Assembly (NCBI GenBank): GCA_001805105.1
Contig: MHEE01000012.1
Location: 25,590-89,589 of the forward strand
DNA: 64,000 nucleotides
Reading direction: 5' to 3'
Source: Nitrospirae bacterium GWF2_44_13
Lineage (GTDB): Bacteria > Nitrospirota > Thermodesulfovibrionia > Thermodesulfovibrionales > UBA1546
Of this stretch, positions 645 through 63,486 are shown one piece after another; the stretch's first letter is position 1; the number at the start of each line of letters is the position of its first letter. The notes under the pieces are model-generated. The model was given only the letters and a program-made list of their open reading frames with translations. It ran no database searches and was not told the origin of the DNA. The position numbers and the translations under genes were made by a program.

Positions 645-1484
645 TCAAATATTTGAAACCAGCGCCTTTCGCATCACTTCAACAGGCGGTTTTTTGCCTG
701 TCCATAATTCAAACGCAAATGCCCCCTGCCACAAGAGCATTCCGAGACCGTTAAGAGTTTTGCATCCTCTTTTTGACGCCATGTCCAGCAACTTCGTCTT
801 TTTATAAATCAAATCGCAGACAACATGCCGCGGTTTCAAAAGATTTATATCAACAGGCAACGGGTCGCCTTTTTTCAAGCCGAGCGGCGTGGCGTTTATT
901 ATTATGTCAATGTCATCAAGCTGATGGCTGAAAGCTGATGGCTGAAAGCTGAAAGAGAACACGTTGTTATTTATTTTCTTCAACGACCTTATAAGCCTTC
1001 CTGCCTTCTTTTTGTCTATGTCATACAAGAATAATTTAGATGCGCTCTGGCAAAGGTAATATCCTATTGCCCGCGATGCCCCGCCCGCGCCAACTATAAG
1101 AACATTCTTATTTTTTACTGATATGTGAGATTCGGACAACAACCCCATAAAGCCTCTGCCGTCAGTGTTATAACCAATAAGTTTATCACACTGATTTACT
1201 ATAGTATTTACGGCTCCTATAAAAGCTGCCTCTTTGTCCACTTTGTCAAGAAATGGAATTACCTTTTCCTTGTGCGGCACAGTCACATTTATCCCCGCAA
1301 GATTAAGCGCCCTCACTGCCTTTACCGCATCCCTTAAGAATTCCGGCTTAACAGGGAATGTCAAATAACAACAGTCAAGCCCGAGATGCTTAAAGGCCGC
1401 ATTGTGCATTGCAGGTGACAGGCTGTGCTCAACAGGCCAGCCAAGCAGGCCCAGCACCTTTGTCTTTCCGCTTATTTTCAGCAT
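645..1484 (-). CDS. aroE: shikimate dehydrogenase
   Basis: N-terminal GWPVEHSLSPAMHNAAF motif, GAGGASRA NAD(P)-binding glycine loop, and NATPLG motif. Carries an in-frame heptamer array (FSFQPSAFSHQL). Confidence 0.9.
   Translation of the reverse strand: MLKISGKTKVLGLLGWPVEHSLSPAMHNAAFKHLGLDCCYLTFPVKPEFLRDAVKAVRALNLAGINVTVPHKEKVIPFLDKVDKEAAFIGAVNTIVNQCDKLIGYNTDGRGFMGLLSESHISVKNKNVLIVGAGGASRAIGYYLCQSASKLFLYDIDKKKAGRLIRSLKKINNNVFSFSFQPSAFSHQLDDIDIIINATPLGLKKGDPLPVDINLLKPRHVVCDLIYKKTKLLDMASKRGCKTLNGLGMLLWQGAFAFELWTGKKPPVEVMRKALVSNI
920..954. repeat. heptanucleotide tandem array, GCTGAWR family, 5 units, inside aroE
   Basis: GCTGATG GCTGAAA GCTGATG GCTGAAA GCTGAAA read directly. Related arrays lie at 30635-30667 and 63452-63486. 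Confidence 0.7.
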
Positions 1485-5211: not shown

Positions 5212-5907
5212 CTATTCTCCCTCAAGTATCAGATAAACCGCATCCCCTGTCTTAACCTGAGTGCCCGGTTTAGGTTTCTGCGATTTTACTGTTTCTCCTG
5301 AGCCTGTGATGCTGACTTTTAATCCCAGCTTTTCCGCAAGCTGTTCAGCCTCCTGCTTTATCATTCCCTGAAAATCAGGGCAATAATAAATTGCCTCATA
5401 AGGCCCGGAACTGACAACAAGCGTAACCTTTTCAGTAATCTTCTCGCCGGGAGCCGGTTTCTGTGCGATAACCCTGTCTTTCTCCGCAGACGTTGAATGC
5501 ACACGGATAACCTTAGCTACTTTCAAACCATTCTTTAAAAGTACGGATTCCGCCTTATCCAGAGATTCTCCTACTACCGAGGGAACAGACTGGACTCTCG
5601 GCCCTTTGCTTACAAACACTCTTATACTGCGCTGTTCCTTAACCCTGCTTCCGAAAGGCAAGTCCTGTCTTATTATGTGCCCTGCCGGAACATCCGCATC
5701 ATAATCTTCGCCCTCTATCTTCAGATTAAGCCCTTTTTTGCTCAGAAGCTCATTAACCTCAACAAGGCTTTTACCTGAAAGGTCAGGGACGTCCACCGTC
5801 CTGCTGAAACTCAATAATTTGAATGTGATATATGCAAAAAACAGGACTACAAGAACAAAAGCTAAGGAATAAAGAGAAAATTTTGCTATGTTGCTTACAG
5901 CCTTCAA
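5212..5907 (-). CDS. PASTA domain-containing membrane-anchored protein
   Basis: N-terminal TM helix followed by three roughly 65-aa PASTA-like repeats (VPDLSGKSL.EV...L...GL). Confidence 0.75.
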   Translation of the reverse strand: MKAVSNIAKFSLYSLAFVLVVLFFAYITFKLLSFSRTVDVPDLSGKSLVEVNELLSKKGLNLKIEGEDYDADVPAGHIIRQDLPFGSRVKEQRSIRVFVSKGPRVQSVPSVVGESLDKAESVLLKNGLKVAKVIRVHSTSAEKDRVIAQKPAPGEKITEKVTLVVSSGPYEAIYYCPDFQGMIKQEAEQLAEKLGLKVSITGSGETVKSQKPKPGTQVKTGDAVYLILEGE

Positions 5908-5926: not shown

Positions 5927-5991
5927 GATGCACGATGCATGATTCATGATACCCCTTATTGTCCTGCATCCTGTATCTTGCATCCTGCATC
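5927..5991. repeat. paired heptamer-array element, GATGCAT / ATCCTGY family (intergenic copy)
   Basis: GATGCAC GATGCAT GATTCAT GAT, 10-nt spacer, then GTCCTGC ATCCTGT ATCTTGC ATCCTGC ATC, between the PASTA gene start and the gyrA stop. Confidence 0.75.
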
Positions 5992-5993
5992 AG

Positions 5994-8402
5994 TTAGTCC
6001 TTCTCAACCACTTTGCTTATGCTGACGATTTTATCTTCCGCGTCAACATCCATAAGCTTGACCCCCTGCGTATTTCTCCCGAGCAGGGATATATTGTTTG
6101 CGGTAGTCCTTATAATCTTTCCTGAATTTGTAATCATTACTATCTCATCCTCATCGCGTACTTGCATAAGGCCAACCGCCTTCCCGCCTTTCTCTATAAC
6201 CTTTATAGATATTACTCCCTTCCCGCCTCTGCCCTGAACACGGTAATCTTCTATCTTGGTCCGCTTGCCAAGCCCTTTTTCCGTGACTGTCAGCAACGCT
6301 GTTCTTTCCTCGGCGACTTCCGCTGAGACAACCTCGTCTCCTTTTGCAAGACGCATTCCTATAACTCCCTTTGCAGTCCGCCCCATCTCGCGGACATCCT
6401 CTTCATTAAAGCGGATTGAAAGGCCGCTCTTTGTGCCGATAATGAGATCACTCTTGCCATCTGTCTTTTTTACCGCGATAAGTTCGTCTCCCTCTTCAAT
6501 CGTAACTGCTATTATGCCCTTGCCTCTTGGATTGCTGTATTCTTCAAGCGCGGTCTTTTTAACCGTTCCGTTCTTTGTGAACATAACAAGAAATCCCTCT
6601 TTAAAATCCCTCACCGGAAGCGCCGTTGTAATTCTCTCGCCTTCTGATAATTGGAGGAGATTGATAAGCGCCTTGCCTTTTGCAGCGCGCCCTGCTTCGG
6701 GAAGCTGGTAAGTCTTGAGCCAGTAGAGCCTTCCGAGATTGGAAAAGAAGAGCATGTAGTCATGAGTTGAACCTATAAAAAGCTGCTCAACAAAATCTTC
6801 CTCTTTTGTTTCCATTCCGATAAGCCCCTTTCCGCCCCTGCGCTGGCTTCTGTATGCGGACAACGGATTTCTCTTGATATAACCCTGATGAGAGATGGTG
6901 ATAACCATATCTTCTTCTGTTATAAGGTCTTCAATCGTAATCTCTTTTAATTCCGCGGCAATCTCAGTCCTTCTTTCATCAGCATACCGATTTTTTATCT
7001 CATCCAACTCATCTTTGACTATCTTTGCTACAAGGGCGTCGCTTCTCAGTATTGCCTTCAGTCTCTCAATCTCTTTTAATGTCTCTGTGTATTCCTTTAT
7101 TATCTTTTCACGCTCAAGGCCTGTGAGCCTCTGTAATTTCATGTCAAGTATTGCCTGCGCCTGAATCTCAGACAAAGGATAATTATTCATGAGTCCGTGT
7201 TTTGCCTCATCAGGCGTCTTTGACTTTCTTATCAACGCGATAATTGCATCAAGATGATCAAGGGCAACCTTGAGCCCTTCCAGTATATGCGCCCTTTCTT
7301 CCGCCTTTCTAAGTTCAAATCTTGTCCTTCTTATGACAACATCCCGCCTGTGCTGGAGAAAATGGCCGAGTATCTTCTTTAAAGGCATCACCTGAGGCTG
7401 GCCGCTTACAATGGCAAGCATTATAATGCCGAAAGTGGATTCCATCTGCGTATGTTTGTAAAGGTTATTCAGGACTACCTCTGCCATCTCGCCCCTTTTA
7501 AGATCAAGGACCACCCTTATGCCTTCCCTGTCAGATTCATCCCGTATCTCGGATATGCCCTCTATTTTTTTCTCTCTTACAAGCTCGGCAATCTTTTCTA
7601 TCAGCCTTGCCTTATTCACCTGATACGGAACTTCCGTGATTATGATATTTTCTCCGCCTCTGTATTCCTGCTCAATCTTCGCCTTGGCCCTGACCTTAAT
7701 AATGCCCCTGCCTGTGGTGTATGCATCAACAATTCCCTGCATTCCATGAATCAAACCGCCTGTAGGGAAATCAGGCCCCTTTACAGCCTTCATCAGGTCC
7801 TTGACAGTTGCTTCCGAATTATCAAGGAGCATGATAAGCCCGTCTATTATCTCGCCGAGATTATGCGGCGGTATATTGGTTGCCATGCCGACGGCAATGC
7901 CTGAGGAGCCGTTTATTATAAGATTCGGCACTCTTGATGGAAGCACCAACGGCTCTTCCGTGGTCTCATCGAAATTGGATTGAAAGTCAACCGTCTCCTT
8001 ATCTATGTCCGCAAGGATTTCTTCCGAGAGTTTTGCGAGCCTTGCCTCTGTGTAACGGTATGCGGCAGCAGGGTCTCCGTCAATCGAACCAAAGTTGCCC
8101 TGTCCGTCTATAAGCGGGTATCTCATGTTGAAATCCTGCGCAAGCCTCACAAGGGCGTCATAAACAGCAGTGTCGCCATGGGGATGATACTTCTTTAAAA
8201 CCTCTCCGACAACACCGGCGCACTTTGAATACTTCTTGCTCGGAAGGAGGCCCTCCCTGAACATCGCATAAAGTATTCTTCTCTGCACAGGCTTAAGCCC
8301 GTCTCTCACCTCAGGAAGCGCCCTGCCGATTATTACGCTCATGGCGTAATTAAGATAGGACACCTTCATTTCTTCTTCAATACTTACAGGAACCTTTGCC
8401 AT
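5994..8402 (-). CDS. gyrA: DNA gyrase subunit A
   Basis: Full-length 802 aa. Has the AAMRYTE-type active-site region ([11 protein letters not shown]) and QRDR-like [17 protein letters not shown]. Confidence 0.97.
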
Positions 8403-8541: not shown

Positions 8542-11500
8542 TTATGACTTGTGATATTCCTGGATGGATTTTATGCTTATATTTTTCTTGCGGAGCATAT
8601 CTATCGCATTGACCACTGCCTTTGCTCCAGAAACAGTCGTAGTATAAGGCACCCTGTACTGGAGCGCGCTATGCCTTATTGAAAAGGAATCCCTCTGAGC
8701 CTGTGCATCGCTGACTGTATTAATAATGAAATTCACTTCCTTGTTTTTGATTAAATCCACGATATGAGGCCTTCCTTCATTCACCTTATTTATTACTTCA
8801 ACTTCTATTCCTTTGCCGCTGAGATGCTCTGCAGTGCCGCGGGTCGCTATCACCTCAAAACCCATGGCGTGGAGTTTCTTCACAATATCACATATCCCGT
8901 CCTTGTCTTCATCCCTGACGCTTATCACAATCTTACCAGACACAGGTATCCTGTTACTGGATGATAACTGAGCCTTTGCATATGCAATACCGAAATCCTC
9001 GTCTATGCCCATCACTTCTCCTGTGGATTTCATCTCAGGGCCGAGAATTGTATCAACACCGCTGAACCTGTCAAATGGGAACACGGCCTCTTTAACGGCA
9101 ACGTGCTTTATCTCCTTTTCAGTTGTCAGCCCTAGTTCCTTTAATGTTTTTCCGAGCATTGCCTTTGCAGCAAGTTTTGCCAGTGGAACGCCTGTTGCCT
9201 TGCTCACATAAGGTATGGTCCTTGACGCTCTTGGATTTACCTCAAGTATGTATATCTCGTTATCCTTGACTGCGAACTGAATATTCATAAGCCCTATGAC
9301 ATTGAGCTCGCGCGCCAAAGCCTTTGTCTGCTTTTTAATCTCAGCAACAATATCGTTATTCAGAGAATAAGGCGGCAGGGAGCATGCCGAATCACCTGAA
9401 TGTATGCCTGCCTCTTCGATATGTTCCATAACACCGCCGACAATTACATCAACTCCGTCTGAAATAGCATCAACATCCACCTCAACAGCGCCGGACAGAT
9501 ATTTATCAATGAGAACAGGATGCTCCGATGACGCCTTTACAGCCCTTTCCATGTAATCAAGAAGTGAACTCTCATCATAGACAATCTCCATAGCCCTTCC
9601 TCCAAGCACATAAGAAGGCCTCACCATAACAGGATACCCTATCTTCATCGCAATCACTACGGCATCTTGAGGAGACATGGCAGTGTCGCTCTCCGCCTGC
9701 TTGAGATTGAGTTTATGGAGAAGTTCTTTGAATCTCCTCCTGTCTTCTGCGCTGTCTATTGAGTCAGGCGAAGTGCCGAGAATCCTTACGCCCTCTTTTT
9801 CAAGAGGCACCGCCAGTTTTAACGGAGTCTGGCCTCCGAACTGCACTATGATGCCTTCCGGTTTTTCAGCCTCAATAATACTCAGCACATCCTCTATTGT
9901 CAGCGGCTCAAAATATAACCTGTCGGCAGTGTCATAGTCAGTGCTGACTGTCTCAGGATTACAGTTGACCATTATAGTCTCGTAACCAAGCTCCTTCAAA
10001 GCAAAGACTGCATGAACGCAGCAGTAATCAAATTCAATTCCCTGCCCTATCCTGTTAGGGCCGGAGCCGAGGATAATTACCTTTTTGCGCTCAGCGGGAT
10101 TGATTTCGGATTCAACTGATGCATGGTTCTTTTCATCCTGTATCTTGTATCCTGCATCCTGTATCCTGTAAAACGGTTTTTCATACGTTGAATACATATA
10201 CGGAGTATATGCCGCAAATTCCGCTGCGCATGTATCAACCATTTTATAGACAGGTTTTATACTGGATTCATTTCTCAGCTTTCTTATCTCCGCCTCTGTC
10301 TTTCCTGCAAGCTTGGCAATACGCCTGTCAGAGAAGCCGTATTCTTTTGCATCCCGCAATAAATCAGGGGCAAGAGATGCATGATGCATGATGCATGATG
10401 CATCTCTTTTTTTATCCTGTATCTTGTATCCTGCATCCTGTATCTTTTCTTCCATCTCCACAATCTGCCTTATGTTATTCAGGAACCACGGGTCAATCCA
10501 TGTGAGTTCATAAATCTCGTTAACAGACATTCCGTTCCTCATAGCCTGCGCAATATACCAGAGCCTGTCTGCATTAGGCATCTTGAGTTTAGCTTTAAGT
10601 TCTGCTGTGCTTACATCAATTTCTTCAAAACCGTAACTTCCAATCTCAAGGCTCCTCATCGCCTTCTGCAAAGATTCTTTAAAAGTTCTGCCTATAGACA
10701 TAACCTCTCCAACAGATTTCATCTGCGTTGTGAGCGTGGAATCAGCCGCTGGAAATTTTTCAAATGCAAACCTCGGAACCTTTGTCACAACATAATCAAT
10801 CGCAGGTTCAAAGGATGCAGGCGTTTCCCTTGTTATATCATTTGGTATTTCTTCAAGCGTAAGCCCCACTGCAAGCTTTGCGGCAATCTTTGCTATGGGA
10901 AATCCTGTTGCCTTGCTTGCAAGAGCCGATGACCTTGAAACTCGAGGATTCATTTCTATAACGGACATCCTGCCATCTTTCGGATTCAATGCAAACTGGA
11001 TATTCGAACCGCCGGTATCAACTCCTATTTCCCTGATGATTGCTATCGATGCATCGCGCATCCGCTGATATTCCTTGTCTGTCAGGGTCTGTGCGGGCGC
11101 AACTGTGATGGAATCTCCGGTATGAACTCCCATCGGATCAAAATTTTCTATGGAACAGATGATAACGACATTGTCCTTCATATCACGCATCACCTCAAGC
11201 TCATATTCCTTCCATCCGATAACTGATTCTTCCACAAGCACCTGATGAACAGGACTGAGCTTCAGCCCATTGTCAAGAAGCTCCGTGTATTCTTCCATGT
11301 TATATGCAATGCCGCTTCCTGTTCCTCCGAGAGTGAATGAGGGGCGTAATATTGCCGGAAAGCCGATATGTTCAATCGCATCCATCCCTTTTTTCAGGTT
11401 CATGACGGCAGCGCTCTTCGGAACCTCAAGCCCGATTTTTTTCATCGCCTCTTTGAAAAGCTCCCTGTCTTCAGCCTTTTTTATCGCATGAAGTTTTGCG

Positions 11501-11850
11501 CCGATGAGTTCAACCTTATACTTTTCAAGCGCTCCGCTTTCAGCAAGCTCAACAGCAAGGTTAAGCGCGGTCTGCCCGCCCATCGTCGGAAGTAGGGCAT
11601 CAGGCCTTTCTTTCTTTATTATCAGCTCAATGATATCTGCTGTTAACGGCTCTATGTAAGTCGCATCAGCAATATCAGGGTCTGTCATGATTGTTGCGGG
11701 ATTTGAGTTTATAAGAACTACCTTGTAGCCTTCTTCCTTCAATGCCTTGCACGCCTGAGTGCCCGAATAGTCAAACTCGCAGGCCTGTCCTATAACAATA
11801 GGGCCCGAACCGATTAATAAGATTTTTTTAATGTCAGTTCTTTTTGGCAT
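8542..11850 (-). CDS. carB: carbamoyl-phosphate synthase large subunit
   Basis: 1102 aa with two ATP-grasp halves and a C-terminal MGS-like domain. Contains two in-frame repeat-derived inserts ([23 protein letters not shown] and [17 protein letters not shown]). Confidence 0.97.
10118..10169. repeat. paired heptamer-array element (GATGCAT / ATCCTGY family) inside carB, copy 2
   Basis: GATGCATG, spacer GTTCTTTTC, then ATCCTGT ATCTTGT ATCCTGC ATCCTGT ATCCTGT. Confidence 0.75.
10376..10444. repeat. paired heptamer-array element (GATGCAT / ATCCTGY family) inside carB, copy 1
   Basis: (GATGCAT)x4+C, spacer TCTTTTTTT, then ATCCTGT ATCTTGT ATCCTGC ATCCTGT ATC. By hand alignment the arms are 21/27 complementary. 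Confidence 0.8.
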
Positions 11851-12961
11851 AAAATCTTTCTATCATCTCCCTGAATCTTTTGAAGATATGTACAGAATCA
11901 TTCGGCCCCGGCCCTGCCTCAGGATGATGCTGGACAGAGAACACAGGCAGTTCAACATGCTGCATTCCCTCTTCAGTGCCGTCATAAAGATTCTTATGCG
12001 TAAGCTTAACCTGTCCTTTAAGGCTGTTTATGTCAACGCAATAATTGTGGTTTTGTGATGTTATTTCAACTCTTCCTGTTGATAAATCCTTTACGGGATG
12101 GTTTCCGCCGTGATGCCCGAATTTTAATTTATAGGTCCTTCCTCCCATTGCAAGCCCGAGTATCTGATGCCCGAGGCATATTCCCAATGTAGGCTTTTTG
12201 CCCATGAGTTTCTTTGCGCTCTCTATCGCATATGTCACTGTCTGCGGGTCACCGGGCCCGTTGCTTAAAACTATTCCGTCAGGATTCATCTCAAGAACTT
12301 TCTCCGTATCTGTTTGTGCGGGAACAACAGTGACATCAAACCCTGCCTCAACAAGGTTTCTCAGGATATTGAACTTTATGCCAAAGTCATATACAACTAC
12401 TTTTAATACCGCTTTACTTCTTTCTACAACGCACCATTTCCAGCATCCTGCTTCCCATTTATAAATCTTCTTCGTCGTTACTTCTTTTACAAAGTCATAT
12501 GCGGCGATGCCCTGATGTTTCTTCACCTTTTCAAGAAGACTTTCAGGGTTCAAATCCTTTGTTGATATTATCCCCATCTGTACGCCGTGGTTTCTTAAAT
12601 GCCTTGTCAGCGCCCTTGTGTCAATGCCCTGAAGCCCCACGATATTTGATTTCTTCATGTAAGCAACAAGAGATGCCTGAGAACGCCAGTTGCTCGGAAA
12701 CTCGCAAACCTCTTTCACGATAAAACCCTCTGCTTTAATCCCGCCCTGCGATTCTATGTCCTCTTCGTTTATGCCGTAATTTCCAATCTGGGGATAAGTC
12801 ATTGTAACAATCTGTCCCTTATATGATGAGTCGGTGAGTATTTCCTGATACCCTGTCATAGAGGTATTAAAGACAACCTCAGCGATAGCTTCGCCTTCAG
12901 AGCCAAATCCCTCGCCTTCAAACACAACCCCATCGGAAAGGACTAATAATGCCTTACTCAT
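11834..12961 (-). CDS. carA: carbamoyl-phosphate synthase small (glutaminase) subunit
   Basis: GATase type-1 motifs (GICLGHQ, HHPE). Overlaps the carB start by 17 nt. Confidence 0.95.
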
Positions 12962-14255
12962 ACACCTTTCCCTTGCATATCGTCATTACCGGCATTCCCT
13001 TCAATATCCAGCCGTCAAAAGGCGTGTTCCTGCCTTTTGAAACAAATCTTTCTGCCTCAACTTTGAATTTTTTATTCGCATCAACCATAACAATATCGGC
13101 ATCAGAGCCAATCTTAAGCGTTCCTTTGTTTATGCCCAAGATTCCTGCGGGCTTCACTGCCATTTTCTCAACAAGCTGCGGCATAGTTAAAACACCTTCA
13201 TGCACAAGCCTCAGACTCAGGCTCAACGCTGTTTCAAGGCCTGATATTCCGGAAGGGGCGCGGTCAAATTCCCGCAGTTTTTCATCCCTGTGATGCGGCG
13301 CATGGTCTGTTGCTATGACATCAATCGTGCCGTCTTTCAGCCCCTGCTTAATTGCATTCACATCTTTATCTGTCCTTAACGGCGGATTCACTTTTGCATT
13401 TGTGTTATATCCTTCAACATTATTCTCTGTAATGCTGAAGTAATGCGGGCATGTTTCTGCAGTTACATTTATTCCTCTTTCCTTAGCGTCTCTGATTATT
13501 CTTACAGAGCCTTCTGTTGAAACATGCGCTATGTGAAGCCTTCCCCTGGCAAGTTTTGCAAGCGAAATGTCCCTGCTTATCATTATCTCTTCTGCTTCAG
13601 AAGGTATCCCCTTTAATCCGAGGGTCAATGACAACAGCCCTTCGTTCATCACACCGCCTTCGGAAAGGCCTATATCTTCGCAATGAGAGATTATCGGGAC
13701 CTTGAAGGCCCTTGAATATTCAAGCGCCCTTCTCATAATAAGGCTGCTCATGACAGGGGTTCCGTCATCTGAAAAAGCGACACAGCCTTCCGAATACATA
13801 ATGCCCATCTCTGCAAGCTCTTCGCCTTTCTGCCCCTTTGTTATCGCGCCAATCGGATAGACAGTGCATGCACCTTCCTGAATCGCCTTCCTTATAATAA
13901 AATCCGTAACGCTTGAATTGTCATTCACAGGGTTTGTATTCGGCATGGCGCAGACTGTTGTGAAACCGCCTTTAACGGCAGCCATGCTCCCTGTTCGTAT
14001 CGTTTCCTTGTATTCAAATCCCGGTTCTCTAAGGTGTGTATGCATGTCTATAAGTCCGGGCAGAACGTATAAGCCGGAAGCATCAATAATATCGCCACCA
14101 GATGCACGATTTTTTATTTTTTTATCTTGCATCTTGTATCTTGCATCTTGTATCTTGATTTCCTTTATTTTTCCCTCTTCAATTAATATATCCCCAATCC
14201 CATCTATTCCCTGTGATGGGTCTGTTATGTGTCCATTCTTAATTAATATTTTCAC
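12954..14255 (-). CDS. pyrC: dihydroorotase
   Basis: DMHTHLREPG metal-binding motif and ATDHAPH. Contains an in-frame repeat-derived insert (KIQDARYKMQDKKIKNRAS). Confidence 0.93.
   Translation of the reverse strand: MKILIKNGHITDPSQGIDGIGDILIEEGKIKEIKIQDARYKMQDKKIKNRASGGDIIDASGLYVLPGLIDMHTHLREPGFEYKETIRTGSMAAVKGGFTTVCAMPNTNPVNDNSSVTDFIIRKAIQEGACTVYPIGAITKGQKGEELAEMGIMYSEGCVAFSDDGTPVMSSLIMRRALEYSRAFKVPIISHCEDIGLSEGGVMNEGLLSLTLGLKGIPSEAEEIMISRDISLAKLARGRLHIAHVSTEGSVRIIRDAKERGINVTAETCPHYFSITENNVEGYNTNAKVNPPLRTDKDVNAIKQGLKDGTIDVIATDHAPHHRDEKLREFDRAPSGISGLETALSLSLRLVHEGVLTMPQLVEKMAVKPAGILGINKGTLKIGSDADIVMVDANKKFKVEAERFVSKGRNTPFDGWILKGMPVMTICKGKVYE
14101..14158. repeat. paired heptamer-array element (GATGCAY / ATCTTGY variant) inside pyrC
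   Basis: GATGCACGAT, a T-rich spacer, then ATCTTGC ATCTTGT ATCTTGC ATCTTGT ATCTTGA. Confidence 0.75.
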
Positions 14256-19625: not shown

Positions 19626-20459
19626 CTATTTCAGCAAGCACCCCTTACATTTGTCATCTCCCCGCTTTGAACTGCACAAGCCTGAAATCCCGTAATGGCA
19701 CATTGCAAAATCATATTTAAGCGGGTCCTCGGAATCAAGTTTCTTTAATGCGCTTGTTATCTCCACAGCCATTTTCCAATCCTGAGATTTGCGTTTTGTA
19801 AAGCCGAGGCATCTTGAAATCCTTGCTATGTGCGTGTCCACAGGGATAATGAGCTTGTTTTCAGGTATGCCCTTCCAGATGCCAAAATCAATGTCTTTAT
19901 TCCTTATCATCCACCGCAGAAAAAGATTCATCCTCTTGCATGCGCTTCCTTTTGAAGGTGAAGGAAAGAATTGGAGCAAACCACCCGGCTTTAAATTTTT
20001 CCCGTAAATATCGGATGTGTCTGTCTTAAGGCTGTAATCTATAAAGCCTGTCAGGGCCTTGCCTGTGTCAGAATCGGTTTTTTTATAAAAACTTTTAAAA
20101 ACATTTTCTATGGATTTATGACTTCTCAGCAGATGACTGATGATATGAAGAAGGCAGATGATGTCCTTATTCTCGTTAAACCTGTATTTTATCCCTGAAA
20201 ACAACCTACCGTCTTTTTTTGCTTTAAACTCCATGAGAAAATCATTTGGACTGCCTCGCATTGCCGAAAGGATTTTTTCTATTACAGGCTTGAATAAACC
20301 AACTTTTCCATAGGCAAAACACGAAGATATAAAGCCCGCAATTTCTATGTCTTCGCGCCTTTTATATCTGTGAGGAAATTCAATGGGGTCATGAAGTATC
20401 CTTTCTTTAAAATCGTATTCGCCATAAAACTTATCAAGAACTTGTTTAACCGACAACAT
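19626..20459 (-). CDS. DUF2400 / TIGR02757 family protein
   Basis: SACKRMNLFLRWMIR, IPVDTHIARI and DPLKYDFA motifs match my recollection of the DUF2400 family. 14-nt overlap with the upstream tatD-rSAM gene. Confidence 0.65.
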   Translation of the reverse strand: MLSVKQVLDKFYGEYDFKERILHDPIEFPHRYKRREDIEIAGFISSCFAYGKVGLFKPVIEKILSAMRGSPNDFLMEFKAKKDGRLFSGIKYRFNENKDIICLLHIISHLLRSHKSIENVFKSFYKKTDSDTGKALTGFIDYSLKTDTSDIYGKNLKPGGLLQFFPSPSKGSACKRMNLFLRWMIRNKDIDFGIWKGIPENKLIIPVDTHIARISRCLGFTKRKSQDWKMAVEITSALKKLDSEDPLKYDFAMCHYGISGLCSSKRGDDKCKGCLLK

Positions 20460-21924
20460 CCAGCTTCCTTACCCTGAGCTTAACGCCTAATTCATCCGCT
20501 ATCTTCCTGCACTTCTCAACATCAACGCCTTCCATTTCTACAACAGTAGCCTGAACATCAGGAATATATTTTTTTGATTCTTTTATGAATGCTAGGACCT
20601 CATGAAACGCATTCTTAAAATCAGGCGCGCATATCCTGTCGTAAACCTTCTCATCCTGTGCATCAAGGCTGACAGAGATGACATCCACGAAACCTTTTAA
20701 TTCAGGAAGTATGTTCCGGCGGTTTATAATATTGCCGTGCCCGTTTGTATTAATCCTGACCCTGCCGCCTCTTTCTTTTATCCACCGGGCAATATTTTTA
20801 ACTATTTCAAACCTGAGAAACGGCTCGCCGTAACCGCAGAAAACAATCTCTTTATATTGAACAGGGTCGCCTATTGCCGCCTTAAGTTCTTCCTCAGTAG
20901 GTTCAGAAGAAAGCCTGAGGTTATGCCCCTTCACATAGTCGCTATGAAACCTCACACAGAACGAGCACTTGTTTGTGCATCTGTTCGTTATATTGAGATA
21001 AAGGCTGTCTCGTATCTTATAGGTTATCTCCCCCTGCTGAATGGACTTTCCTATCCTGAAAAGCCGCCTTGCATTGAGTGTCGTAATCCTTGCGATATCT
21101 TCAAGGCTTACCCCCCTCGTCTCAGCTATTTTTTCAGCGGTATTGACCATAAAAGCAGGTTCATTCCTTCTGCCCCTGAATGGTTCAGGCGTGAGATATG
21201 GAGCGTCAGTCTCTATGAGGAGATAATCATCAGGAATCACCTCTGCTGTCTCACGTAATTTGCCTGCATTCTTAAATGTCACCGGCCCCGCTATGGATAT
21301 GTAAAGCCCCATCTCCATAGCCTTTTCCGCCATATCCATGTCTCCTGAGAAGCAGTGCAGAACTCCCCTGTTTATCCCTGAATCTCCGAGTATTTCAAGC
21401 GTATCTTTTTTTGCCTCCCTGCTGTGTATGATTACCGGCAGTGCAAGTTCTTTTGCAAGAAGCAGCTGCTTTTTAAAAACCTCTTTCTGAATATCTCTTG
21501 GTGAGTTATCGTAATGATAATCAAGTCCTGTTTCGCCGATTGCAACAACCTTGGGAAGCGAAGATGCATGATGCATGATGCATGATGCATGGTTTTTTAA
21601 TTCTGTATCCTGTATCCTGTATTTAGTTCCCCATGCCTTTATCTGTTCGTATATTTCCTCTGTAAAATCCTTTGCATCATGAGGATGTATGCCGACTGAC
21701 GAGTAAATGAAATCATATTTTTCAGAAAGCCTTAGGCTCCCGCTATTGCCTTTCATATCAGAGCCGACTGTAATAACAGCTTCTATGCCTGCGTCCCTTG
21801 CCCTTTGGATAACTTTATCCCTGTCCTCATCAAATTCGGTCATCTCGATATGACAATGGGTGTCAATGAAAGTGACGAGTGGCGGCTGTTTTTTACGCAC
21901 CGAATTTTTTGAGACGCAATGCAT
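20446..21924 (-). CDS. TatD-family metal hydrolase fused to a TatD-associated radical SAM domain
   Basis: N-terminal TatD motifs (IDTHCH, GETGLDYHY, HSREA, ETDAPYL). The C-terminal roughly 200 aa carry CTNKCSFC (CxxxCxxC) and a GYGEP glycine motif. In-frame repeat insert [20 protein letters not shown]. Confidence 0.85.
   Translation of the reverse strand: MHCVSKNSVRKKQPPLVTFIDTHCHIEMTEFDEDRDKVIQRARDAGIEAVITVGSDMKGNSGSLRLSEKYDFIYSSVGIHPHDAKDFTEEIYEQIKAWGTKYRIQDTELKNHASCIMHHASSLPKVVAIGETGLDYHYDNSPRDIQKEVFKKQLLLAKELALPVIIHSREAKKDTLEILGDSGINRGVLHCFSGDMDMAEKAMEMGLYISIAGPVTFKNAGKLRETAEVIPDDYLLIETDAPYLTPEPFRGRRNEPAFMVNTAEKIAETRGVSLEDIARITTLNARRLFRIGKSIQQGEITYKIRDSLYLNITNRCTNKCSFCVRFHSDYVKGHNLRLSSEPTEEELKAAIGDPVQYKEIVFCGYGEPFLRFEIVKNIARWIKERGGRVRINTNGHGNIINRRNILPELKGFVDVISVSLDAQDEKVYDRICAPDFKNAFHEVLAFIKESKKYIPDVQATVVEMEGVDVEKCRKIADELGVKLRVRKLDVVG
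21563..21620. repeat. paired heptamer-array element (GATGCAT / ATCCTGT family) inside tatD-rSAM
   Basis: (GATGCAT)x4, spacer GGTTTTTTA, then ATTCTGT ATCCTGT ATCCTGT. Confidence 0.8.
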
Positions 21925-23218: not shown

Positions 23219-23854
23219 TCATTTATTAATAAGTTTCTTTAGCGCTAAGCCCGATTTCTCCACAATATCACTATGCAGGCTTCTTCCGTGTGCATCCATC
23301 GTCACTATCGCAGGAAAATTCTCCACCTCCAGCAGCCACATCGCCTCAGGAACACCAAACTCTTCGAGCTTCCAGACATCAACAACCCTTTTTACCCTGT
23401 CAGCAAGATACGCTGCTGCGCCCCCGATGGTATGGAAATATACACAGCCATTTTTTTTCATTGCATCCAGAGTGCGCTCGCACATGCCGCCCTTTCCCAT
23501 AATGCCCCTGATTCCGTACGAAGATATTATCCTGTGCTCATACGTCTCAACCCTTATGCTTGTCGTAGGCCCCGACGCAATAATCTTATAGCCGCTATCA
23601 GATTTTTTGACTATAGGCCCGCAATGATAGAAAACCGTCCCGCTGAGATTAAAAGGAATATCCTTCTTTGACGGCCTCTCGTAGAAGAGAAACTTATGTA
23701 TCTTATCCCTGCCGGTTACTATCATGCCGTTTATTAAAACCACATCGCCGACATTAAGTCCCGTGACATCTTTTTTCGATAATGGCAGATTTATTATCTT
23801 TGCTTTTTTACCTGAAACCTGTGACCCGAAACCTGTAACCTGTTTTTCTACCAT
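23219..23854 (-). CDS. class I (Fe-S) fumarate hydratase, beta subunit
   Basis: GPTTS and MGKGG motifs. I chose the ATG at 23854 because GAGGAAGG lies 6-7 nt upstream and the overlap with the alpha subunit is small. The longest ORF starts at 23887. Confidence 0.88.
   Translation of the reverse strand: MVEKQVTGFGSQVSGKKAKIINLPLSKKDVTGLNVGDVVLINGMIVTGRDKIHKFLFYERPSKKDIPFNLSGTVFYHCGPIVKKSDSGYKIIASGPTTSIRVETYEHRIISSYGIRGIMGKGGMCERTLDAMKKNGCVYFHTIGGAAAYLADRVKRVVDVWKLEEFGVPEAMWLLEVENFPAIVTMDAHGRSLHSDIVEKSGLALKKLINK
23810..23844. repeat. heptanucleotide tandem array, ACCYGWR family, 5 units, at the 5' end of the fumarase beta gene
   Basis: ACCTGAA ACCTGTG ACCCGAA ACCTGTA ACCTGTT, which encodes QVTGFGSQVSG. 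Confidence 0.65.
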
Positions 23855-24693
23855 ATCAGCCTTCCTCTTCTGTTGGCCCAGCAGCATACAGATATATCCA
23901 CAAAGTAAGATGCAGGATGGCGGTGGTTAACGCCTATCTTTACCCCGAGAGCAGTTGTTTTTCCTCCAAAACCAATAGGGCCTATGCCGAGGGTGTTTAT
24001 TTCCTTCAGCAGTCTTTTTTCAAGCTTAAAAAGAACCTCAATATTATTCGTATCAGTCAGCCTTCTCATAAGCTGTTCCTTTGCAAGACGAGTAACCTGA
24101 TCCTTTGCCACACCTATTCCAACTCCGATGGTATATGGCGGACATCCCCTGCCCTGTGCCCTATAAACCGCATCAAGAACGCATTTTCTTACGCCGTCAA
24201 GGTCTCTGTCTGCCTTCAATTCTTCTTTGGGAAGCTTGTATGTCTGTCCCACATTTTCACAGCCTGAGCCTTTAAGCATTAGGTCTATTGAAAGTGTGCT
24301 GTCAGGCACTTCCCTGAAATAGATTACGGGAAATCCCATGCCTGTATTGTCCCCTGTATTTTTATCCGTGATTATATCAACGGCATTCGGCCTTAACGGG
24401 ACTTTTTCAGTTGCAATGCGGGTTGCCTCTATGATTGTCTTTTCAAGTTCAATCTGGCTTAGGCCTATCGGGGTTTTAACATAAAAAACAGGCACGCCTG
24501 TATCCTGACAAATAGGCCTTGCAGTCTCTCTTGCAATGCGTATATTTTCAAGGATTATCTCAAGAGCATGCCTTGCATTTGAACCTTTCTTTTCAGAAAC
24601 ACACGCTGCCTTAAGCGCATCCTCAACATCAGGAGGCAATGATGTTGCGACTTTTCTGTAAAGCTCTACTATCCCGTCACGAAGTTTCAGCAT
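23848..24693 (-). CDS. class I (Fe-S) fumarate hydratase, alpha subunit
   Basis: CQDTGVPVFYV motif and Fe-S cysteines. Paired with the beta subunit immediately downstream. Confidence 0.9.
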   Translation of the reverse strand: MLKLRDGIVELYRKVATSLPPDVEDALKAACVSEKKGSNARHALEIILENIRIARETARPICQDTGVPVFYVKTPIGLSQIELEKTIIEATRIATEKVPLRPNAVDIITDKNTGDNTGMGFPVIYFREVPDSTLSIDLMLKGSGCENVGQTYKLPKEELKADRDLDGVRKCVLDAVYRAQGRGCPPYTIGVGIGVAKDQVTRLAKEQLMRRLTDTNNIEVLFKLEKRLLKEINTLGIGPIGFGGKTTALGVKIGVNHRHPASYFVDISVCCWANRRGRLIW

Positions 24694-24806: not shown

Positions 24807-25418
24807 TTACTTTTTAGGTGTTTCTTTCTTGGGTTCTTCTTTCTTGGGTTCTTCTTTCTTGGAAAGGCCTGCAATCGCATCCTTGTTCACGTCAATCTTA
24901 TATGACTTCTTAAGATTTTCAACGTAACCGTCAAAAACTTCCTTCTGTTTCTGTGCGGTCAGCCGCTGGGCCAGCATATCCCTTATCTTCTCAAACTCAA
25001 TTGTCTTGCCCTGCACCACGAAATCAGTCTTGTTCTTTTCATAGAAGTCCCTTATGTCTTTATCGGACAGCTTTGCCTTATCCTCTATCTCCTTTTCAAG
25101 AAGCGCACTTATGAGAATCAGCTTCTGGGAATCTGCAACTTTTTTAAGATATGTGGCATCCCTGTCAAGCCCTTTCTTCTTAGCTTCCTGATAGAGAAGC
25201 TCTTTTTTGATGAGTTCATCAATCAGCCTCGCTATTCCTTCCTCACCCTCAAACATCTTCTGCGCAAACGGCGGAAGGGCTTCAATCTCCTTCTTGAGGT
25301 CTTCCTTTGTTATGGTAACGCCGTTTATCTTTACAAGATACTGTCCTTTCTGTTCTTCTTTCTTTGCGCAGCCAAAGACAAGAAAAACAGTTAATACAAA
25401 AAATGCAATCTTTTTCAT
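24807..25418 (-). CDS. SurA N-terminal-domain-like chaperone lipoprotein
   Basis: Lipobox LVFGC, then a helical chaperone-like region. The C-terminal (KKEEP)n tail is encoded by a 15-bp tandem repeat. Confidence 0.6.
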   Translation of the reverse strand: MKKIAFFVLTVFLVFGCAKKEEQKGQYLVKINGVTITKEDLKKEIEALPPFAQKMFEGEEGIARLIDELIKKELLYQEAKKKGLDRDATYLKKVADSQKLILISALLEKEIEDKAKLSDKDIRDFYEKNKTDFVVQGKTIEFEKIRDMLAQRLTAQKQKEVFDGYVENLKKSYKIDVNKDAIAGLSKKEEPKKEEPKKETPKK

Positions 25419-30634: not shown

Positions 30635-30667
30635 GCTGATAGCTGATCGCTGAAGGCTGAAGCTGAG
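30635..30667. repeat. heptanucleotide tandem array, GCTGAWR family (intergenic)
   Basis: GCTGATA GCTGATC GCTGAAG GCTGAAG CTGAG. Confidence 0.65.
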
Positions 30668-30936: not shown

Positions 30937-32223
30937 ATGCCCTTAAATAACAAGACAAGGATAAACAAAAAACTTGAATGGGGGAAATATGTATCCCCTC
31001 TCTCCGATAAAAATATTACCCCCTTCAACTGGTATTCATTCAAACACAGATTCGGCAGTGAGCTTGTCTCAAAGATATTTTTCATGTTTGGATTATCAGA
31101 AGGAGACTCGATTTTCGACCCCTATTGCGGCGGGGGCACGACCCTTATTAAATCAAAATTAGACGGATACAATGCAGTTGGCTTGGATATTTCCCCTTTT
31201 TCTACTTTCTTAACAAACACCTTAACAAAATCATATGACGCAAACAGATTAAACAAAGCATTAAAAAAAATTTCCCATAAAGTTAATTCAAAAGTTGATA
31301 TCCCAGATGTTGCTATTCTGCAAAAATCGTTTTCTGACAGAACATTGCAATATATTTACTCATTAAAAGATTCAATCAATTCATTATCTATGCCCGAGAG
31401 AGATTTTTTTCTTTTTTCCTTGTTGAGAATCTTGGATAGTGCAAGCAAAGCAAAAAAATCAGGAGGATTTCTTCGAATAACTGATCAAAAAAGGGTTCCG
31501 CTGGAAGTCGTTAAAAAAATGTTTGTTGATTCTTCTGAAAAACTCATGAGCGATATTAAGACCTTTAAATATACAGATACTTTTACCAAGGCGGTAATTG
31601 GTGACGCAAGAGATTATCCATATGAAGTGAAAGACAAGAAATATGATGCTATATTAACGTCACCACCATATCCGAACAGACACGACTATACACGGATATA
31701 TGAGCTAGAATTATTGGTTGGTTTTATAAAAGACAACAAATCTCTTAAAAACCTCCGGTACGAAACTTTAAGATCGCATGTAGAGGCCAAAGAGAAATAC
31801 AAAGCAGATGGCTATATTAGACCTATGCTGCTTGAGAAAAAGATAAAAGAGTTAAATAAGCGTGAGATGAATAATTCTAAAGTTATTTCAACAATCGATG
31901 GATATTTTGAAGATATGTACTTGTCTTTGAAAGAAATGGCCAATGTTTTAAAACCCGGCGGCCATATTGGGCTTGTTGTCAGCAATGTTCGCTTTGCGGG
32001 TGTTATGATTCCAGTTGATGAATTGCTGACACAAATAGGAACACAGGTAGGCTTAGAAAATGAGGGTATTTATGTTCTTCGATATAGAGGGAATAGCTCT
32101 CAGCAAATGGGCAGACATAAAAGAGAGCCAGCCCGAGAAAGTCTGATAGTCTGGGGAAAATTAAAAATATGCAACAAAAGAAAAAAACAACAAGCCAGCC
32201 TAAACAAATCGTTTACCTTTTAG
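30937..32223 (+). CDS. DNA methyltransferase (N6-adenine or N4-cytosine type, SPPY catalytic motif)
   Basis: AdoMet motif I IFDPYCGGGTTLI followed by GYNAVGLDISP. Catalytic motif IV ILTSPPYPNRHDY sits about 170 aa downstream, and LKPGGHIGLVVSN follows later. K/N/I-rich and AT-rich. Confidence 0.8.
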   Translation: MPLNNKTRINKKLEWGKYVSPLSDKNITPFNWYSFKHRFGSELVSKIFFMFGLSEGDSIFDPYCGGGTTLIKSKLDGYNAVGLDISPFSTFLTNTLTKSYDANRLNKALKKISHKVNSKVDIPDVAILQKSFSDRTLQYIYSLKDSINSLSMPERDFFLFSLLRILDSASKAKKSGGFLRITDQKRVPLEVVKKMFVDSSEKLMSDIKTFKYTDTFTKAVIGDARDYPYEVKDKKYDAILTSPPYPNRHDYTRIYELELLVGFIKDNKSLKNLRYETLRSHVEAKEKYKADGYIRPMLLEKKIKELNKREMNNSKVISTIDGYFEDMYLSLKEMANVLKPGGHIGLVVSNVRFAGVMIPVDELLTQIGTQVGLENEGIYVLRYRGNSSQQMGRHKREPARESLIVWGKLKICNKRKKQQASLNKSFTF

Positions 32224-34282: not shown

Positions 34283-34365
34283 TGGCTTAATCACTCGTTG
34301 CTCAACACTTTTGGGTCAGCATTTTATGAAAAAAATAGTAAAAAATTAGAAAAAATTAGGGAACA

Positions 34366-35393
34366 TGTACTAGCTCACTAATTCGGTAACTTTCTGGAGT
34401 TTATCAAAAGGTGTTTCATAGTTCAAGCCCCCATGTTTCCTCAGATGATTATATTCAAATAAAAAGTTCCCAAGATTCATGAGCAAGTCTTTCTCGGACT
34501 CGAATGAATTGGGATAAAAAAACTCGTTCTTAATTATCTTCCAGAATGCCTCTACTTTTCCATTTGTCTGAGGCCGGTAGGGCCTAGTGCATATGTGTTT
34601 TATTCCTAATTCAGCGCACATTGTCTCAAAAGGATGCTCCCGAGCAAGTGAGCCCTTAAATTCGGGACCATTGTCAGACAATATAGCTTCAAATTCAAAA
34701 TTATATATTTGTTTAAACCATGATAATGAACGAGCCATAAAGTATGTCAGGGTTGAGGCCTTTTTGTCTTTAACTATTTCGGCATAGACAAGTCTTGTGC
34801 AATCATCGCAGCATCCAGCAACATAGAGTTCTTTGATTTTAAACGAGCATCTTATATCTTTTGGGATCTTGGTCATATCTATATGGGCAAGCTCTCCGGG
34901 CGCCTGCTTTTCATAACGCTTTATTATTTGCTTCTGTGCCTCATTCAGAGGATAACGTGCCTTTATTCTGTCCATGGTGGCAGGAGAAGGTGTTTTATCC
35001 AGATAGTAAGGTTTAAAAAGAAGAACCAGTTCGTACCTGTTTGAACCAAATCTTCTGTAAGCTTTGATTATGTTTCGCTCTACCTCTTTAGGTGTCCGTC
35101 TTGAACCGGGTTTAGCTCCTCTTTTACTCGGCAGAAGTGATTCAGCCTTCTTTCCGCCTTCTATCCATTTGACATAGTACCGCCTGAGTTCTTTTGCGCT
35201 GATATGGTGCGCTTTACAAAGGTCTTTTACAAACCTGAATGGTCGAGGTGTAATTTTGGAACGCGTCCGCTCATATTCCTTTAAAATCGGCAGCCATCTT
35301 TTAAGAATAATTTGATACTCGTAATGCATAACAGCCCTCCTTTGGTTAATTTTTACTATACCAAAAGAGTTACCTAATTACTGAGCATGAACA
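34366..35393 (-). mobile_element. IS481-family insertion sequence (1028 bp) with 26-bp imperfect terminal inverted repeats
   Basis: Left end TGTACTAGCTCACTAATTCGGTAACT (34366-34391) matches the reverse complement of the right end TGTTCATGCTCAGTAATTAGGTAACT (35368-35393), with 21 of 26 positions identical. TGT termini and a single rve transposase ORF. Confidence 0.85.
34370..35329 (-). CDS. IS481-family transposase (HTH + rve/DDE integrase core)
   Basis: HIDMTKIP (D), SDNGPEFKG (D) and RPYRPQTNGKVEAFWKIIKNEF (E) motifs. The stop codon lies inside the left IR. Confidence 0.92.
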   Translation of the reverse strand: MHYEYQIILKRWLPILKEYERTRSKITPRPFRFVKDLCKAHHISAKELRRYYVKWIEGGKKAESLLPSKRGAKPGSRRTPKEVERNIIKAYRRFGSNRYELVLLFKPYYLDKTPSPATMDRIKARYPLNEAQKQIIKRYEKQAPGELAHIDMTKIPKDIRCSFKIKELYVAGCCDDCTRLVYAEIVKDKKASTLTYFMARSLSWFKQIYNFEFEAILSDNGPEFKGSLAREHPFETMCAELGIKHICTRPYRPQTNGKVEAFWKIIKNEFFYPNSFESEKDLLMNLGNFLFEYNHLRKHGGLNYETPFDKLQKVTELVS

Positions 35394-47414: not shown

Positions 47415-48422
47415 ATGAAACAGACTATATTTCTTATAGGTAATCCCGCAGCAGGCAGGAATGCTCTGAGGAAAATCAACGAAGCAGCAGCAATCATTAA
47501 AAACAAGGGACACAATGTTGAGATGCTGCTTACCGGAAAAAGAGGGGATGCAGAGTCATTTGCAAGGGAAATCGTTCAGAAGTCAGAAGTCAGAAGTCAG
47601 AAACCCAAGATTCAAGATGCAGGATACAAAATTCAGGATAATCATGCATCGTGCATCGTGCATCATGCATCGGAGGACTCCGAACTCCGAACTCCGAACT
47701 CCGAACTTCTAATCATCGCGGCAGGCGGTGATGGAACATACAATGAGGTGATTAACGGCATTGCCTGCACCAACATACCAATGGCAATACTCCCGCTCGG
47801 AACGACAAATGTCCTTGCTAAGGAGCTTGGCATATCGAAATCTATAGAAACCGCCGTCAGCATAGCACTGGAGAGAAACAGCCGTCACGTTTCTTTGGGA
47901 AGAATAACCATTGAAGCAAGCTCTGAGATGCCTCAAAATTCCCGTTACTTCTGCCTGATGGCAGGTATTGGATATGACGCTGAAACAGTTTACGGAATAA
48001 AAGATGAGATAAAAAGATACTCAGGGAAAGGAGCATATATCTTAAGCGGGCTAAAGACACTGCTTAGATGGGCGCCTGATAAATTGACCTTCACCATGAA
48101 CGGCGTATCCTGCGAAGGATACTCGGCAATAATCTGCAAGACATCAAAATATGCGGGAAATTTCAGAATTGCGCCTGATGCAGATATAAAGAACGCCGAT
48201 TTTTATACCTTCATTATGCACGGTAAAAAGCGGCTGGACATTTTCAGATATGTCTCAGGGATAGTTATGGAAAAACACCTAAAATGTACAGACATAACAT
48301 ATAGGAAAATAGAGAACATGGCAGTCAAGGGTAAAGCGCACATACAAATAGACGGAGATTATTTCGGAATGACGCCGGCAAAAATTGAGGTTGTACCCGA
48401 GGCGCTGAGGCTTATATATTAG
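47415..48422 (+). CDS. diacylglycerol/lipid kinase family protein (YegS/BmrU-like)
   Basis: GNPAAG start, AAGGDGT and LPLGTTN motifs. Carries a roughly 45-aa in-frame repeat-derived insert just before AAGGDGT. Confidence 0.85.
   Translation: MKQTIFLIGNPAAGRNALRKINEAAAIIKNKGHNVEMLLTGKRGDAESFAREIVQKSEVRSQKPKIQDAGYKIQDNHASCIVHHASEDSELRTPNSELLIIAAGGDGTYNEVINGIACTNIPMAILPLGTTNVLAKELGISKSIETAVSIALERNSRHVSLGRITIEASSEMPQNSRYFCLMAGIGYDAETVYGIKDEIKRYSGKGAYILSGLKTLLRWAPDKLTFTMNGVSCEGYSAIICKTSKYAGNFRIAPDADIKNADFYTFIMHGKKRLDIFRYVSGIVMEKHLKCTDITYRKIENMAVKGKAHIQIDGDYFGMTPAKIEVVPEALRLIY
47576..47709. repeat. nested composite of four heptamer arrays inside the lipid kinase gene
   Basis: Outer left (TCAGAAG)x3-4, inner TNCAGGA-type units (reverse complement of ATCCTGY), inner (ATGCATC/GTGCATC)x4, and outer right GGAGGAC (TCCGAAC)x4 TTC. 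Confidence 0.8.
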
Positions 48423-63451: not shown

Positions 63452-63486
63452 ATTGCTGCCTGCTGAATACTGATTGCTGATTACTT
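63452..63486. repeat. heptanucleotide tandem array related to the GCTGAWN family (intergenic, just upstream of the tRNAs)
   Basis: ATTGCTG CCTGCTG AATACTG ATTGCTG ATTACTT. Confidence 0.55.

Follow-up and report, generated by a model that had tools for sequence, protein, structure and literature searches.

Paired heptamer repeats reside in frame in carB and other housekeeping genes of Thermodesulfovibrionia

How does the gene of an essential enzyme come to hold two copies of the same repetitive element, both in its reading frame? The question is raised by carB, the gene encoding the large subunit of carbamoyl-phosphate synthase, in a 64-kb stretch of DNA from Nitrospirae bacterium GWF2_44_13 (contig MHEE01000012.1; this whole stretch is referred to as the window). 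The open reading frame (ORF) of carB (8542..11850, minus strand) encodes 1102 aa, and an earlier note on this DNA had described within it two in-frame copies of one element built of paired heptamer arrays; coordinates, frame and protein length proved to be as claimed. Based on the analysis presented here the two copies probably belong to a dispersed, non-autonomous family of hairpin-forming heptamer repeats that is tolerated in permissive protein loops.

The full copy at CarB site 1 (10376..10444, plus strand, antisense to carB) codes for residues 469-492 and consists of (GATGCAT)4 at 10376-10403, the T-rich spacer CTCTTTTTTT at 10404-10413 and about 4.5 units of ATCYTGY at 10414-10444. Separated from it by approximately 205 nt, a shortened copy occupies site 2 (10118..10170, plus strand; residues 562-578), being composed of a single GATGCAT (10118-10124), the spacer GGTTCTTTTC and (ATCYTGY)5 (10135-10170). 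Both copies are in frame with the CarB reading and have the order of unit variants beside the spacer in common (GCAGGAT-ACAAGAT-ACAGGAT). The CarB protein of the window is 100% identical to the recorded protein of "Nitrospirae bacterium GWF2_44_13" and could be aligned end to end with CarB of E. coli (1bxr_A, E = 0). The two insert sites are the only large excesses over the E. coli protein in that part of the alignment. The site-1 copy corresponds to an excess of 15 aa between ...EVGI and TGL..., in what we take to be the oligomerisation domain, and the site-2 copy to an excess of 21 aa between STYEE and ECEANP, presumably in the linker ahead of the second ATP-grasp half. This agrees with the location near the oligomerisation and linker region that had been proposed before.

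An AlphaFold model of CarB built from 56 relatives, of only moderate quality (mean predicted local distance difference test score, pLDDT, 70.7) assigned pLDDT values below 50 to residues 479-491 and 560-577; the site-2 insert was modelled wholly as coil, while the site-1 insert partly extends the helix 454-483. The model is compatible with a placement of the inserts in surface loops, for which the earlier note had suggested a test, yet lends it weak support, since some conserved stretches of CarB score low as well.

As the source is a metagenome-assembled genome (MAG) and short tandem repeats can confuse assemblers, the inserts might be suspected to result from repeat-induced misassembly or from binning. 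However, the frames are intact, the identical CarB protein has been recorded from 6 contigs, and the same inserts were found again at the same codons in independent MAGs and metagenomes from different projects (NCBI, JGI, Logan). Taking furthermore into account that the length differences among relatives are exact multiples of 21 nt, such an artefact appears extremely unlikely.

An exact-pattern scan with one genome per species detected at least 105 stretches matching the element, and the family statistics given in the following cover the 115 unique copies among the matches listed. Read along the element strand, tandem GATGCAY heptamers are followed in a full copy by a short T-rich loop and then by tandem ATYCTGY heptamers; the median length is about 66 nt (range 31-143). 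Most of the listed stretches originate from Nitrospirota/Thermodesulfovibrionia MAGs. The family is multi-copy in the Thermodesulfovibrionia (Nitrospirota) and sporadic elsewhere, with several listed stretches in three Candidatus (Ca.) Dadabacteria MAGs and one groundwater "Deltaproteobacteria" MAG, and single listed matches in GC-rich Chloroflexi MAGs, an ANME-1 MAG and others. Single matches in MAGs may be binning errors, and the match in Erythrobacter looks like chance. The Chloroflexi loci have a G+C content of 0.56-0.65 (0.42-0.44 in the listed Dadabacteria and "Deltaproteobacteria" loci) and are therefore not stray Nitrospirota contigs.

The CarB fragment of "Nitrospinota bacterium KR13_N2.mb.31" (loci L032, L044, L056 and L059) shares the insert and its flank (…HHASVESEI) with the lineage of the window, so that the phylum label of this genome is probably wrong or its contigs are mis-binned. 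Among PLSDB plasmids no match to the family was found. One short intergenic copy is present, identical, in three related IMG/VR contigs (L113 4228-4273, L114 2642-2687, L115 8406-8451), where it is located just upstream of a ribosome-binding site and an ATG at a contig G+C of about 0.55. A phage as vector of the element was considered, but one short copy in three related viral contigs is too little to support it.

Altogether 79 of the 115 listed copies are situated in frames that stay open over at least 150 codons, and in every one of these (79/79) the frame runs opposite to the element strand. For four copies the long frame is on the element strand, and the remaining 32 have none. The hosts of the 79 in-frame copies form at least 40 protein clusters, among them RecJ, MurD, a HemD/CobA fusion, PyrC and TatD as confirmed by Pfam, and proteins whose likeness to LeuRS, PurL, DapF and CobQ was judged by eye only. 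The copies of the Dadabacteria and the "Deltaproteobacteria" are situated between genes. A MurD-like ORF (L087) carries two family copies in one protein, as does CarB.

It might be supposed that selection acts on the inserts as part of the protein, where they would serve as a peptide module or a flexible linker, the repetitiveness of the DNA being secondary. The reading frame across the spacer is indeed nearly always alike among the listed copies (..QD-KK-..HAS..), the encoded peptides are hydrophilic, and the orientation bias goes beyond the effect of a stop-codon filter. Selection for a peptide is nevertheless highly improbable, considering that the 32 copies outside long ORFs include all five of the Dadabacteria, that conservation is seen at the nucleotide level, that the same loops of relatives accept unrelated peptides, and that the modelled inserts are low-confidence coil.

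Alternatively, the arrays could have been born in place by microsatellite-like expansion of chance heptamers, their likeness resulting from convergence or local gene conversion and not from dispersal. Arrays do grow and shrink in place, and neither terminal features nor target duplications nor a mobilising gene were found for the family. Yet the same two heptamers occur in the same order and orientation around a T-rich spacer in at least 40 unrelated host genes as well as in intergenic DNA, and they do so in genomes of very different G+C content (0.42-0.44 versus 0.56-0.65). Together with the unit-variant order next to the spacer that is common to both carB copies, this makes an origin in place distinctly improbable.

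The preferred reading, a dispersed family, is in line with the further copies in the window, which contains six of them including the two in carB. One was detected between the stop codon of gyrA (5994) and a gene for a PASTA-domain protein (5212..5907), at 5927..5991 on the plus strand, and is kept at the same place in relatives (L004 6076-6142, L005 15985-16058). The copy in pyrC (dihydroorotase; 12954..14255, minus strand) is located at 14100..14157 on the plus strand and translates as IKIQDARYKMQDKKIKNRAS, and that in a TatD-radical-SAM gene (20446..21924, minus strand) at 21563..21622 on the plus strand, where it is read as 20 residues. A gene for a YegS-type lipid kinase (47415..48422, plus strand) harbours a composite copy (47576..47707, minus strand) of four arrays in a row, in which the arm pair of the family is enclosed by outer (TCAGAAG)4 and (ACTCCGA)4. 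The arm patterns matched 20 and 19 times in the window (G+C = 0.434), where shuffles lead to expect 0.07 and 0.73 matches; strict tandem arrays numbered eight at period 7 and none at periods 5, 6 and 8-11.

The earlier note had called the element an imperfect palindrome in which G pairs with T on the plus strand. This was borne out for the site-1 copy, the plus strand of which, taken as RNA, is predicted to form 28 bp (-33.6 kcal/mol, z = -7.3), with single mismatches dividing the stem into 6-bp helices; on the mRNA (sense) strand its two arms are left unpaired. It does not apply to the site-2 copy, which folds no better than shuffles (z = -1.4). The antisense strand of the lipid kinase copy is predicted to give a single nested hairpin (-55.5 kcal/mol, z = -5.0; sense strand -33.6), and both strands of the gyrA-PASTA spacer copy fold equally well (-25 and -28 kcal/mol, z about -4.6 and -4.7). 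In the outer arms of the lipid kinase copy there are two G-U pairs per 6-bp segment.

The element strand gives the more stable fold in 94 of the 115 listed copies, with -28.1 kcal/mol compared to -20.5 on the other strand for copies in ORFs and -24.9 compared to -22.4 for those outside ORFs. Likewise, opposed bases on the element strand are G-T in 237 cases and A-C in seven within ORFs, and G-T in 82 and A-C in 15 elsewhere. Because it is present in both classes of copies and larger in ORFs, the strand asymmetry is a property of the family that is sharpened inside genes. At position 4 of the unit, A is opposed by T 43 times and by C four times, G by T 180 times and by C 110 times (Fisher p = 2.5e-5), and pyrimidine-pyrimidine pairs account for 298 of the 359 single mismatches, at the seventh position. 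Other heptamer families in the fetched loci share this architecture; according to our own reading the antisense strand gives the better fold in five of the eight that lie in long ORFs. Such strand-specific pairing with tolerance of G-U is a hint of an intermediate in which the element strand is single, either as RNA or as DNA.

A cruciform of the two arms in single-stranded DNA was also considered and is not favoured, as DNA energy parameters leave the inter-arm hairpin of the site-1 copy sub-optimal; under these parameters (GATGCAT)4 folds on itself because its ATGCAT core is palindromic. In a search against Rfam 15 only two tRNAs of the window reached the gathering score, and at the element itself the matches, to miRNA-precursor hairpins, all stayed below threshold (best 31.5 bits, cut-off 62). 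Furthermore, nothing relevant was found in the literature on heptanucleotide or palindromic repeats in Nitrospirae or Thermodesulfovibrio or on these repeat sequences. With no Rfam match and no description in the literature searched, the family thus remains as unrecognised as it was when the copies in carB were first noticed.

In carB, differences between orthologous copies were counted at 16 of 276 positions and differences at synonymous third positions of the gene at 552 of 3021, i.e. the element copies diverge approximately three times less. This slow divergence may be due either to selection or to gene conversion among copies. In the former case the hairpins could be functional cis elements, acting as structured antisense or sense RNA, as a protein-binding DNA or RNA motif, or as a translational pause at domain boundaries. 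Apart from the low divergence, such a function would be supported by the maintenance of pairing with G-U pairs and an A-T/G-C/G-T covariation pattern, by the regular pyrimidine-pyrimidine mismatch that is kept across families, by the position of the CarB sites at or near domain boundaries, and by the occurrence of the same heptamer pair in distant phyla. However, the structured strand is antisense to the hosts, and in the mRNA strand the arms are mostly not paired with each other. Close relatives swap or lose the element at the same site while the gene stays intact, the shortened carB copy is devoid of the hairpin, and gene conversion among many copies can also produce low divergence. A cis-acting function therefore seems unlikely.

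Both insert sites in CarB are hypervariable. The comparison of CarB with its 120 closest sequences (77-94% identity, 1078-1139 aa) was focused on residues 455-600, in which all length variation is confined to the same two sites. Some relatives hold the heptamer element there, P0032 and P0112 hold almost nothing, and other relatives hold repeat-derived peptides such as HSVHGSRFTVHG, KVESEKLKVKSE...LSTLNSQLLTS, GIGDWGLGISKTNPQPLTPNP and NPTLPPLKLRGGEEG. In the carB DNA of six relatives the flanks are identical and the contents of the sites differ. At site 2, L004 and L005 correspond to the window plus 21 nt (three ATCATGC units on the coding strand), and compared with these close relatives the copy at 10118-10170 has lost three units of one arm. 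In L002 and L006 the element is replaced at this site by (TTCACGG)4. Site 1 is occupied by a GC-rich perfect palindrome in L004 and by (AAGATTC)4 together with a period-8 array in L006.

Steps of 21 nt were also observed at carB site 1 (P0004), in pyrC (window versus L005) and in the TatD gene, in which L005 has three units (21 nt) more than the window. The alignment of orthologues, proposed in the earlier note as a check, thus defined the insert sites and confirmed that lengths change in steps that keep the frame. The TatD site is nearly empty in L001, where TGGGCAG is directly followed by CATCCTCG; the carB gene of L001 is about 8% divergent in nucleotides. This site resembles two joined ends of the element, as would be left by a deletion across the hairpin. 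The pyrC loop of relatives contains variants of the element or other elements, with none in L007 (GCA_021373015.1), and the lipid kinase loop contains inner-only, shortened or other modules. In the latter no clean pair of "outer arms only" and "outer plus inner arms" was found among the relatives, only modular mixtures. Period-7 arrays number one in 23 kb of L007, 16 in 23 kb of L005 and 13 in the 64 kb of the window, and the array-poor L007 is also without the inserts in CarB, PyrC and TatD. From one relative to another, permissive loops such as those of CarB are filled by differing elements, either heptameric or palindromic and GC-rich.

The site-1 allele of L004 is common to P0021, P0027 and P0031, and L004 is otherwise 96.5% identical to L005. 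As distant relatives share alleles of the site while the rest of the gene differs, recombination contributes to the turnover, and the alleles look as if they were exchanged in this way. The "two insertions" in carB may thus partly reflect inheritance and recombination.

The GC-rich perfect palindromes that fill the same loops in relatives, e.g. CCCCCTCCCTAACCCTCCCCCTCGAGGGGGGGTTAGGGAGGGGGG, are translated as ...PPL.KGG.GGF... and were detected in carB site 1 of L004 (~1400-1500), at the N-terminus of TatD in L005 (3280-3400), in pyrC of L006 (~7450-7560) and in a PurL-like ORF (L082); in some cases they are nested within heptamer arrays or next to them. The carA gene, which is free of inserts in the window, has a hot-spot loop of its own in relatives (L002 3073-4284, L005 8760-9932, L006 8681-9868), holding other paired heptamer arrays such as (GTAATGA)n...(ACGCATC)n, read as FVMSNELKAENKDASRITHHAS. 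Moreover, carA and carB, which are adjacent in the window, are split in one relative (L002 4278-7543, L003 4181-7446) by a cassette predicted to encode an N6/N4 DNA methylase, an EcoRV-like endonuclease, a second methylase and a flavin reductase.

How copies could be tolerated within genes may be pictured as follows. Copies landing in a gene would persist only if their total length keeps the reading frame, if their orientation puts the A-rich strand into the mRNA, where fewer stop codons and hydrophilic residues would result, and if the site is a tolerant surface loop or an interdomain linker. The A-rich strand codes for the hydrophilic residues K, Q, D and N and folds weakly as mRNA; the T-rich strand would code for hydrophobic residues and fold strongly. 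As the comparison with relatives shows, the arrays change their length in steps of three units (21 nt, 7 aa); replication slippage is the presumed cause, and only such steps would survive because 21 nt keep the frame.

Several observations weigh against this account of a dispersed and tolerated family. Neither target-site duplications nor direct repeats nor a target motif were found at the copies, and the information content of the flanks is near zero on both sides. Clustering of the ORFs of about 100 loci (up to 8 kb) revealed no recurrent transposase-like ORF near the copies, only the housekeeping hosts being recurrent, and no movement event of the element was observed. Among the annotated ORFs of the window (Pfam) the only mobile-element gene encodes an rve-type integrase (34370..35329) with no visible link to the element; no HUH transposase or reverse transcriptase is contained in this annotation. 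The sequence counts of the family do not represent independent events, many copies being orthologous, and some of the changes at the CarB sites look as if existing alleles had been recombined rather than new copies inserted. In about a quarter of the in-ORF host clusters no more than 40 codons separate the element from the beginning of the open frame, and it may belong to a 5' leader, so that the true intragenic share would be somewhat below 69%. That the inserts would be translated as extra loop residues is judged from the intact frames only. Finally, the orientation bias of 79:4 is much stronger than a stop-codon filter predicts: open frames through copies outside ORFs number 40 on the element strand and 52 on the complement, and the filter was therefore rejected as the sole cause. 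A filter for hydrophilicity or mRNA structure could add to the bias.

The window contains further repeats and a small island apart from the heptamer family. Period-7 arrays of other units were located at 918-955, 23810-23843, 30635-30666 and 63463-63485. The gene for shikimate dehydrogenase (645..1484) has an in-frame period-7 array that is read as FSFSFQPSAFSHQ, and an array is also present in the matching gene of a relative (L002 18328-18353). The gene for the fumarase beta subunit (23219..23887) carries a period-7 array at its N-terminus, whereas the arrays at 30635-30666 and 63463-63485 are outside long ORFs, the latter directly upstream of two tRNA genes (63491-63561 and 63567-63641). An exact 15-nt tandem repeat of 2.7 copies at 24822-24862, TTCTTTCTTGGGTTC, is unrelated to the heptamer family and forms an in-frame 5-aa repeat at the 3' end of a SurA-N-like ORF (24807..25418, minus strand). 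Amid housekeeping genes, the region 30937-35329 comprises an ORF resembling a DNA methylase fragment, an ORF of unknown function, a GmrSD-type restriction endonuclease and the rve-type (DDE) integrase.

The earlier note had compared the element with the Rickettsia palindromic elements for its behaviour and with the heptameric repeats of cyanobacteria for its build, and in-frame residence in ORFs and the period-7 arrays are in agreement with both comparisons. Rickettsia palindromic elements are about 150 bp long and form ten families; R. conorii has 44 copies, of which nearly half are located in ORFs (PMC10969869). Both systems consist of small, multi-copy palindromic repeats that reside in frame in unrelated housekeeping ORFs and add a peptide at a tolerated site. 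The Rickettsia elements, however, measure about 100-150 bp, are non-tandem and encode a conserved peptide (PMC10969869), while the elements described here have a median of about 66 nt and are built of tandem heptamers. They are further distinguished by their Nitrospirota hosts, by a share of approximately 69% of the listed copies in ORFs (including possible leaders) and by copy-number steps of 21 nt. The heptamer family may thus be set apart from the Rickettsia families by size and tandem build.

The STRR (short, tandemly repeated, repetitive) sequences of heterocyst-forming cyanobacteria are heptanucleotides with about 100 or more copies per genome, mainly outside protein-coding sequences. 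They were reportedly described by Mazel and colleagues in 1990, and Vioque is said to have found an STRR inside the gene for RNase P RNA in 1997. As in STRR, tandem heptanucleotide arrays are dispersed here and can reside in a functional gene that tolerates additional helix or loop length. The units GATGCAY/ATYCTGY, however, differ from those of STRR1-3 (CCCCAGT, TTGGTCA and CAACAGT), and the hosts are Nitrospirota, Ca. Dadabacteria and few others. To our knowledge, a regular arm-spacer-arm hairpin with a mismatch at the seventh base and systematic in-frame residence in ORFs do not belong to the description of STRR.

Similarity is also seen to the small dispersed repeats (SDRs) of Nostoc, unique units of 21-27 nt that are embedded in heptamer arrays and have no associated transposase. 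Elhai and colleagues are said to have taken their G-U-compatible variation, in 2008, as a hint of an RNA intermediate. Very small hairpin repeats tied to heptamer arrays, nested insertions, G-U-compatible variation and the lack of a transposase are common to both systems. Here, however, the arrays themselves form the hairpin, and nested GC-rich loop palindromes are only occasional (L041, P0096).

[quoted passage not shown] Unlike MITEs, the family has neither target-site duplications nor defined termini; its arms are inverted arrays (GATGCA...TGCATC), and no transposase of a parent insertion sequence recurs in the approximately 100 loci, which measure up to 8 kb. By definition REPs are found outside genes, while most listed copies are intragenic, and no gene of the REP-associated tyrosine transposase (RAYT) type was found near the copies or among the annotated ORFs of the window. 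Contingency loci such as the heptanucleotide repeats of Haemophilus also consist of tandem heptamers in ORFs, in which a slip by one unit shifts the frame. The hosts described here, however, are essential housekeeping genes, the arrays come in complementary pairs and all observed length differences are of 21 nt; frame-keeping steps of three units in housekeeping genes argue against on/off switching.

With regard to the origin of the arrays, it is conceivable, though rather doubtful, that an undescribed and horizontally transferable copying mechanism is at work. Acting via a single-stranded, G-U-tolerant hairpin of one strand, possibly RNA, it would recognise a helix of "6 bp plus pyrimidine-pyrimidine mismatch" instead of a specific sequence and would write hairpins into the genomes of several phyla, preferentially at existing hairpin loci. 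The protein loops of the Thermodesulfovibrionia would in this case document where it has been active. The strand specificity and G-U tolerance of the pairing, together with the periodic mismatch, provide concrete features by which the mechanism that makes the arrays may be traced.

For analyses of Nitrospirota MAGs it matters that the inserts make proteins longer and interrupt Pfam domains, and that alignments and gene calls can be misled by them. The hot spots, in turn, mark positions in well-studied enzymes at which insertions are tolerated. The family would extend the biology of heptamer repeats beyond cyanobacteria to other phyla and would constitute, beside that of Rickettsia, a second and richer in-frame system in which it can be studied how selfish DNA enters proteins and which loops tolerate insertion. 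If our interpretation is correct, one bacterial lineage tolerates and keeps renewing hairpin repeats in proteins resembling LeuRS and PurL by eye as well as in essential enzymes such as CarB, PyrC, MurD and RecJ.

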